DNA of 64,000 nt, from NCBI RefSeq assembly GCF_054482525.1, contig NZ_CM137006.1; one strand, 5' to 3'. A model generated the notes under the pieces. It was not told the origin of the DNA and did no database searches. It saw nothing but the letters and a program-made list of their open reading frames with translations. The translations under genes were made by a program, and so were the position numbers. Below, in pieces: positions 55,734 through 55,770 of this stretch. Numbering within the stretch: position 1 is the first letter of the stretch; every line of letters begins with the position of its first letter.

Positions 55734-55770
55734 CGGGGTACTGCATTTTTTTTGTAGTACCCCGTATAAT
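55734..55770 (+). promoter_or_regulatory. Candidate menF promoter: consensus -10 TATAAT directly after an 8-bp inverted repeat that brackets a T8 tract
   Basis: CGGGGTAC-tgcattttttttgta-GTACCCCG then TATAAT at 55765-55770; menF GTG 29 nt downstream; -35 region is poor (TGCATT). Confidence 0.4.

Follow-up and report, generated by a model that had tools for sequence, protein, structure and literature searches.

A conserved stem-loop at the 3' end of elaB mRNA adjoins the menF -10 box in Escherichia coli

The genes elaB and menF of Escherichia coli are separated by a short intergenic spacer, which we examined within a 64,000-nt stretch of chromosome (hereafter the window) that carries rbn (elaC) on the minus strand and elaA, elaB, menF and menD on the plus strand. 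The spacer (55721-55798, 78 bp) has the same sequence as in K-12 MG1655. K-12 coordinates near the locus were obtained as 2436442 minus the window position, a conversion that was checked on the K-12 sequence. Further upstream, at window 52442-52500 in the rbn region on the elaD side, the window diverges from K-12, and so it derives from a different E. coli strain. Within the spacer, CGGGGTAC (55734-55741), tgcattttttttgta (55742-55756), GTACCCCG (55757-55764) and TATAAT (55765-55770) follow one another directly, and these letters match exactly the inverted repeat, T8 tract and hexamer described in the original prediction. The annotated menF GTG at 55799 lies 28 nt past the end of TATAAT. The feature has previously been without annotation; both of the RNA ends that coincide with it are already present in public genome-wide tables. 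The coordinates of all elements are collected in Table 1.

Table 1. Features of the elaB-menF junction, in window positions.
Feature	Position	Strand	Remarks
elaB CDS	55415..55720	+	101 aa, stop TAA at 55718-55720; from the ORF list and the RefSeq annotation of the identical K-12 locus
Outer helix, 5' side, GTTAAAACCTCC	55716..55727	+	partner of 55774-55785 in the minimum-energy fold of E. coli
CTCCCT, conserved C-rich block 5' of the hairpin	55724..55729	+	identity higher than in the preceding 9 nt (values in text)
5' stem arm, CGGGGTACTGCA	55734..55745	+	core GGGTACTG (55736-55743) invariant in 48 sequences
Hairpin loop, seven T of T8 (55746-55753)	55746..55752	+	from the fold; the eighth T pairs with A55745
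3' stem arm, TGTAGTACCCCG	55753..55764	+	also menF promoter spacer, -25 to -14
TATAAT, menF -10 hexamer	55765..55770	+	start site 8 nt downstream; conserved
elaA-elaB mRNA 3' end, ...GUACCCCGUAUA-3'	55768 (K-12 2380674, minus strand)	+	Term-seq, SMRT-Cappable-seq
Outer helix, 3' side, region GGCTTTTAACAG	55774..55785	+	GAGGCTTTTAAC spans 55773-55784; covers discriminator, start site and first leader bases
menF-menD(-menH) mRNA start	55778 (K-12 2380664)	+	SMRT-Cappable-seq Supplementary Data 2; 21-nt leader
menF Shine-Dalgarno region, AGGGAGAGGT	55785..55794	+	5 nt 5' of the GTG; nearly invariant in the alignment
menF CDS	55799..57094	+	isochorismate synthase, 431 aa, GTG start; from the ORF list and annotation

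The feature occurs at one place per genome and was found in 5421 of 5426 complete E. coli genomes; in a comparison over 35 nt, 4073 genomes were identical and 1341 carried one mismatch. All three aligned variant strains of E. coli have the change A55756C, by which one inner stem pair is broken. Repeated extragenic elements (REP, ERIC, MITE) are recognised by multiple copies per genome, and such a reading is ruled out by the single-copy occurrence of the sequence in 5421 genomes. A scan of 55000-56500 against Rfam at E <= 10 returned nothing relevant, the three sub-threshold snoRNA hits being chance matches elsewhere in that interval.

The inverted repeat is longer than its 8-nt arms. It extends to 12 nt on either side (55734-55745 and 55753-55764, 92% complementary) with a sole mismatch that becomes a G·U pair in RNA, and CGGGGTAC and GTACCCCG form the core of the resulting 12-bp stem. 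With a 7-nt loop, the structure falls within the usual definition of a terminator stem-loop (G+C-rich, stem of at least 5 bp, loop of 3-8 nt). Folded as RNA, it has a free energy of -21.9 kcal/mol (z = -4.85), and none of 200 shuffled sequences was equally stable. The fold of the wider interval 55715-55800 (-35.3 kcal/mol, z -4.73) adds an outer helix between GUUAAAACCUCC and GAGGCUUUUAAC. This outer helix is largely specific to Escherichia: its AAAA/TTTT part is not conserved outside the genus, and its CCTC:GAGG pairs are 79% paired across relatives, with some two-sided changes in few cells.

The upstream gene whose mRNA stops at the hairpin is elaB. K-12 2380674 appears as the 'primary' 3' end for elaB in the Term-seq entries of Supplementary file 1 of Adams et al. 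(2021, PMC7815308), where it is entered three times in a table that has a separate sheet for each growth condition; two of the entries show read counts of 54,112 and 221,851. SMRT-Cappable-seq gives 2380674 as the 3' end of transcripts from the elaA promoter at 2381565 and flags it 'novelTTS', that is, absent from RegulonDB (Yan et al. 2018, PMC6131387). Two independent methods, from two laboratories, agree on this base, which is 55768 in the window and lies 4 nt beyond the stem, within TATAAT. The end is a leaky one. Ten of 30 reads from 2381565 stop at 2380674, none stops within 50 nt beyond it, and 16 run at least 50 nt past it, with a median extension of 199 nt; the study also reports transcripts that start at 2381565 and continue through elaA and elaB into menF (PMC6131387). 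Read-through into menF is seen in more than half of the full-length reads. A literature search found no paper linking elaB to ProQ.

The hairpin resembles the intrinsic terminators of E. coli in its G+C-rich stem (8-12 bp in that class) and 7-nt loop placed after a stop codon, in the discrete mRNA 3' end just downstream, and in the textbook terminators that occupy the equivalent place in relatives. It differs from them in that the stem is followed by UAUAAUGU, which is A/U-rich with one G in 8 nt, rather than by a U-run, the sole T-run being in the loop; in that at least half of the transcripts read through; and in having no terminator entry in RegulonDB. A terminator scan requiring at least 5 T of 8 did not find a U-tract here, the tail TATAATGT having 4 T in 8 and a T-score of 1.48 against 3.0 for the Buttiauxella terminator. 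The same scan returned, at this locus, only a weak 5-bp alternative hairpin, ACCTC/GGGGT, 5' of the T-run; this candidate is disfavoured as the terminator, the mapped 3' end following the large hairpin and not falling within T8. Intrinsic terminators usually produce 3' ends 7-9 nt past the stem. The elaB end does lie just past the stem, but at +4 it is closer than is typical, and for this reason it may have been trimmed or may be wholly a product of processing. The suggestion in the original prediction that T8 and the downstream arm are the elaB terminator in an unusual arrangement therefore stands in substance, given a 3' end 4 nt past the stem, but not in its parts, for T8 is the loop and not a U-tract, and the stem is made of both arms.

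Stem-loops that protect 3' ends without the help of a U-tract offer a second comparison. They have in common with the elaB structure a stable hairpin at a mapped 3' end and a very short single-stranded tail, whereas the elaB hairpin, unlike those of REP type, is single-copy, has no detected Rho region downstream and sits inside a promoter. Processed 3' ends at hairpins without U-tracts, arising from Rho-terminated or read-through transcripts, were reportedly described by Dar and Sorek in 2018. The strongest alternative to termination is of this kind: all elaAB transcription would run on into menF to end by Rho or by decay, and 55768 would mark the place where a 3'-to-5' exonuclease stops at the stem. 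The missing U-tract and the distance of only 4 nt from stem to end both speak for it, as do the 16 of 26 informative reads that pass the site and typically end inside menF. Set against these points are the absence of read ends within 50 nt past the site and the A/U-rich tail behind a stem of -22 kcal/mol, which could allow partial intrinsic termination. Furthermore, the bicyclomycin data of Adams et al. (2021, PMC7815308), as far as their listed regions go, include no Rho-termination region at K-12 23803xx-23807xx or anywhere else from the hairpin to the 3' end of menF, although at low coverage one could be missed. Taking both sides together, we regard processing without any termination as possible but somewhat doubtful.

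In the same listing, the nearest Rho-termination region is at K-12 2379281, in the menF-menD spacer (PMC7815308). This position (window ~57161; spacer 57095-57182) is classed there as 'orphan' (Adams et al. 2021, Supplementary file 2, PMC7815308), and Yan et al. (2018, PMC6131387) list it as the start of menD-menH-menB transcripts. Since the Rho region and the start site both fall at 2379281, the men operon appears to be internally punctuated after menF.

The downstream side of the feature belongs to menF. SMRT-Cappable-seq places a start at K-12 2380664 for both the menF-menD and the menF-menD-menH operon variants (Yan et al. 2018, PMC6131387), which lies 8 nt beyond the end of TATAAT and so within the 6-9 nt expected for sigma-70. 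The identification of TATAAT as the menF -10 box is borne out by this start and by the conservation of the hexamer as far as Yersinia. The companion proposal, that the T8 tract stands where a -35 or UP element would be, finds no support: T8 spans -32 to -25, UP elements sit further upstream than this, and no -35-like hexamer scores. A consensus promoter scan of the locus returned no promoter-like match, the -35 box being missing; the best candidate, CTGCAT, agrees at 2 of 6 positions with 18-bp spacing, and an extended -10 TGn is absent, the bases 5' of TATAAT being CCG. The menF promoter is therefore like other sigma-70 promoters with a consensus -10 and no -35 box, whether factor-dependent or weakly constitutive, in its perfect TATAAT and its start 8 nt further on; it differs in lacking TGn, in the conserved C-rich CC(C/A)CG directly upstream of the -10 box, and in having its -35 and spacer region taken up by the elaB terminator hairpin.

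Other transcript maps place 5' ends elsewhere. Kim et al. (2012, PMC3415461) assigned to menF two 5' ends inside elaB, at U00096.2 2378779 and 2378830 (65 and 41 reads), which correspond to window 55685 and 55634; the start at 55778 is not among the ends in that study, and the Cappable-seq supplement (Ettwiller 2016) has no entry for the menF start. Our scan found no promoter-like sequence 5' of 55685 or 55634, and these ends are likely to be processing products or weak internal starts. Because the ends of Kim et al. differ, the start at 55778 rests on one dataset together with conservation. It may also be off by 1-2 nt, since the start base is T, an unusual initiating base. At window 55760-55767 (CCCCGTAT), and in the homologous CC(C/A)CGTAT of all clades, a C-rich block is fused to the -10 box, in what we take to be a resemblance to the sigma-32 -10 consensus CCCCATNT; the mapped start fits TATAAT better than a -10 box of sigma-32 type.

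We compared the junction across relatives through a scan for MenF with one genome per species, which yielded 80 loci. In all Enterobacteriaceae loci examined elaB is directly upstream of menF, with spacers of 78-123 nt, apart from a few longer ones. Two layouts were found. In the first, a hairpin of the form GGGTACTG...CAGTACCCC abuts the -10 box as in E. coli; this is the arrangement in Escherichia, Citrobacter, Salmonella, Enterobacter, Lelliottia, Kosakonia, Trabulsiella and their relatives, from which 48 distinct sequences (E. coli and 47 relatives) were aligned. In the second, represented by Buttiauxella, Cedecea, Shimwellia and Franconibacter, elaB is followed by a canonical terminator (stem and then T5-T9), which ends 10-16 nt before ACCACGTATAAT. 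A canonical hairpin and T-run beside the same -10 box in other genera suggests that a terminator abutting this promoter is the ancestral layout. Yersinia has no elaB upstream and no hairpin, and keeps CCCCGTATAAT. The -10 box itself is TATAAT in nearly all Enterobacteriaceae relatives and in Yersinia, and otherwise TATACT or TATAGT.

Some of these loci stand apart. In Enterobacter genomosp. O (L054:1290-1440) the spacer is 211 nt long and contains an insertion just 5' of the hairpin (AGTAAGTGACTGGGGTGAGC...), resembling an ERIC/IRU element, that replaces the CTCCCT block; the hairpin and the -10 box are kept. Kosakonia cowanii (L078:1452-1500), in which menF has an ATG start, has an extra hairpin and T-run (AAAACCGTGCCGTTTTT) between the -10 box and the menF Shine-Dalgarno sequence that could be a species-specific leader terminator or attenuator. 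Two matches are probably assembly contamination or recent transfer: one on a contig labelled Parasutterella muris, a betaproteobacterium, whose MenF is 69% identical to that of E. coli (L027), and one on a 318-bp contig of Caballeronia mineralivorans that is 99% identical to E. coli MenF (L083).

Conservation of the spacer was measured as identity to E. coli over the loci with MenF identity below 85%. Four-fold degenerate sites in menF, which serve as the neutral baseline, are 0.39 identical. Against this, the 5' arm core reaches 0.99, the 3' arm with the -10 box 0.93, the CTCCCT block before the hairpin 0.94, and the discriminator and leader (55771-55798) 0.88, whereas the hairpin loop is at 0.55 and the 9 nt before CTCCCT at 0.31. 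The comparison of the palindrome with neutral drift thus indicates strong purifying selection on both arms. In relatives the loop is T-rich and variable in sequence, with a nearly constant length. The motif CC(C/A)CGTATAAT is kept in Buttiauxella, Cedecea, Franconibacter and Yersinia, all of which are without a hairpin of the E. coli type, and this places the 3' arm under constraint at the level of the promoter. Likewise, ACC(C/A)CG of the 3' arm is conserved even in clades without the hairpin, and the retention of CC(C/A)CG and the -10 box there indicates that both belong to menF independently of the hairpin.

The alignment gives limited purchase on the question of RNA pairing against a DNA dyad. 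The main hairpin is paired in 84% of alignment cells, compared with 44-60% for slid controls; inner and outer stem pairs vary freely, while 5-8 core pairs never vary and changes on both sides are seen at 1 pair only. With invariant arms, covariation offers no means of telling an RNA hairpin from a site bound by a protein. G·U pairs in the stem, which occur in 8 sequences at columns 31-43 and in E. coli, appear from the alignment to fit RNA pairing better than a DNA dyad. The near-constant loop length exceeds what a hairpin by itself needs, and fits a constraint on promoter geometry or a protein.

We consider it probable that a single stretch of DNA does two jobs here, a hairpin for elaAB, acting as a terminator, as a barrier to exonucleases, or as both, being embedded in the promoter of menF. 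In RNA from the elaA and elaB promoters, 55734-55764 folds into the stable stem-loop (12 bp in K-12, with an invariant 8-bp core in relatives), and transcripts end at 55768. The stem-loop is probably a weak intrinsic terminator with UAUAAUGU as its tail, a barrier to 3' exonucleases, or both; it may act as a leaky terminator whose product is trimmed by a few nucleotides, as a pure exonuclease barrier on read-through RNA, or in both ways at once. With one G in 8 nt, the tail would form a weak RNA-DNA hybrid, though it has no U-tract, and on balance the 3' end would come from termination rather than processing. In DNA, the 3' arm serves as the spacer of the menF promoter, with TATAAT as the -10 box and a start at about 55778. 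The invariance of both arms may then be explained by the 3' arm also being promoter sequence: with the 3' arm fixed by promoter function, the 5' arm would have to stay complementary, leaving no compensatory path. The arrangement may have derived from an ancestral canonical terminator such as other genera possess; on the line leading to E. coli, its descending arm may have switched its pairing to the promoter spacer, so that the former T-run came to lie in the loop. This dual use is the simplest account of all the data, and the hairpin is best read as a leaky, U-tract-poor terminator or as a structure protecting the 3' end, in either case overlapping a menF promoter that has no -35 box.

An extension of this reading concerns the CTCCCT block, which is complementary to AGGGAG of the menF Shine-Dalgarno sequence; its CTCCC matches two other partners equally well, GGGG in the 5' arm and GAGG in the discriminator (55773-55776). 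CTCCCT pairs with AGGGAG in 92.7% of cells, without covariation (the core is invariant), and CTCCC with the GGGG of the 5' arm in 80%; minimum-energy folds pair CTCCCT with AGGGAG in most species outside Escherichia. The small CTCCC/GGGGG hairpin showed no covariation in relatives. Covariation in the extended helix between this anti-Shine-Dalgarno sequence and the Shine-Dalgarno sequence (0.072) was not above that of shuffles (0.080), and an impression of compensatory changes from lineage to lineage proved to have no statistical support against them. In a 110-nt context, the modelled cost of opening the Shine-Dalgarno sequence was greater in read-through than in promoter-derived RNA by +3.3 kcal/mol in E. 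coli and by a median of +3.5 kcal/mol in the hairpin clade, against +0.5 kcal/mol in other clades; with 200 nt of upstream context the difference in E. coli was ~1 kcal/mol, and this thermodynamic test of masking is suggestive only. CTCCCT, kept near by the hairpin, might pair with the menF Shine-Dalgarno sequence only in transcripts from the elaA and elaB promoters, insulating menF translation from them, and the invariant dyad might in addition bind a regulator, SdiA or another; we think this combined proposal unlikely.

The palindrome had also been proposed as an operator overlapping the promoter. On that view the two invariant arms, whose centre at about -29 falls upstream of the -10 box and downstream of the -35 position, would be bound by a dimeric regulator that controls menF, and the RNA hairpin would be incidental or an additional use of the sequence; SdiA is the one candidate that has been named, and the view is compatible with a role for the hairpin. 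It draws on the invariance of both 8-bp arm cores at nearly constant spacing, without compensatory changes and where neutral sites are saturated, and on the perfect -10 box without a -35, a combination characteristic of factor-dependent promoters. CTG...CAG in the arms resembles lux-type boxes, and LuxR-type activator sites lie at -42.5; to our knowledge, there is no binding protein or matching motif for the palindrome. PmenFDHBCE reporters depend on sdiA in two genera, with a -105-fold, AHL-independent effect (repression) in Enterobacter cloacae and a +1.8 to 2.7-fold effect in Salmonella, while the E. coli fusion is unregulated; the authors left it undecided whether the regulation of menF is direct or indirect (Schwieters & Ahmer 2024, PMC11619404). 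According to a 2025 review, there is no usable SdiA consensus. Regulation does not track the presence of the site, for the palindrome core is identical in E. coli and Enterobacter and strong dependence on sdiA is seen only in E. cloacae. An identical core with differing regulation argues against the dyad as the determinant of the difference between E. coli and Enterobacter, although differences in SdiA itself could explain it. The likeness to LuxR-type (lux box) and other dyad operators thus consists in dyad symmetry over a core promoter and in the sdiA-dependent reporters, and it fails in the atypical spacing and position of this putative site, the arm centres being 19 bp apart and a centre at -29 being unfit for a LuxR-type activator site. 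Asymmetries of the G·U type are tolerated, the sequence is single-copy in E. coli with no sign of a regulon motif, and the hairpin fully accounts for the mapped RNA 3' end. The operator proposal has no direct support, and we judge it quite improbable.

Two further ideas can be set aside. A roadblock, in which polymerase parked on the menF promoter halts elaB transcription, does not fit the geometry, the 3' ends of such collisions being expected ~50-70 nt upstream of 55768. A functionless chance palindrome beside a chance TATAAT is vanishingly improbable: 8-bp perfect inverted repeats are common (the window has 63, where Markov resamples of these 64 kb give 22 +/- 6) and TATAAT occurs 9 times on the two strands, but conservation of 0.99 and 0.93 against a neutral 0.39, the coincidence of two mapped RNA ends with the elements and the z-score of -4.85 refute it, and it is conservation with the mapped ends, not the 8-bp repeat by itself, that sets the feature apart from chance.

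As the evidence stands, the feature is a compact, strongly conserved and essentially ordinary overlap of terminator and promoter. The elaB-menF spacer, which contains the invariant dyad arms and the CTCCCT block, is conserved far beyond the level of neutral sites, and it is this extreme conservation, the C-rich block and the sdiA effect that raise its interest slightly. For the men operon, the analysis settles the role of the palindrome and defines the entry point through a -10 box, a mapped start and a short leader, and it reveals a second, substantial supply of menF transcription by read-through from RpoS-induced elaB. Should the CTCCCT block mask the menF Shine-Dalgarno sequence as proposed, the abundant read-through RNA of stationary phase would be translationally silent for menF and decay early, and transcripts started at 55778, without the anti-Shine-Dalgarno sequence, would be the ones translated.
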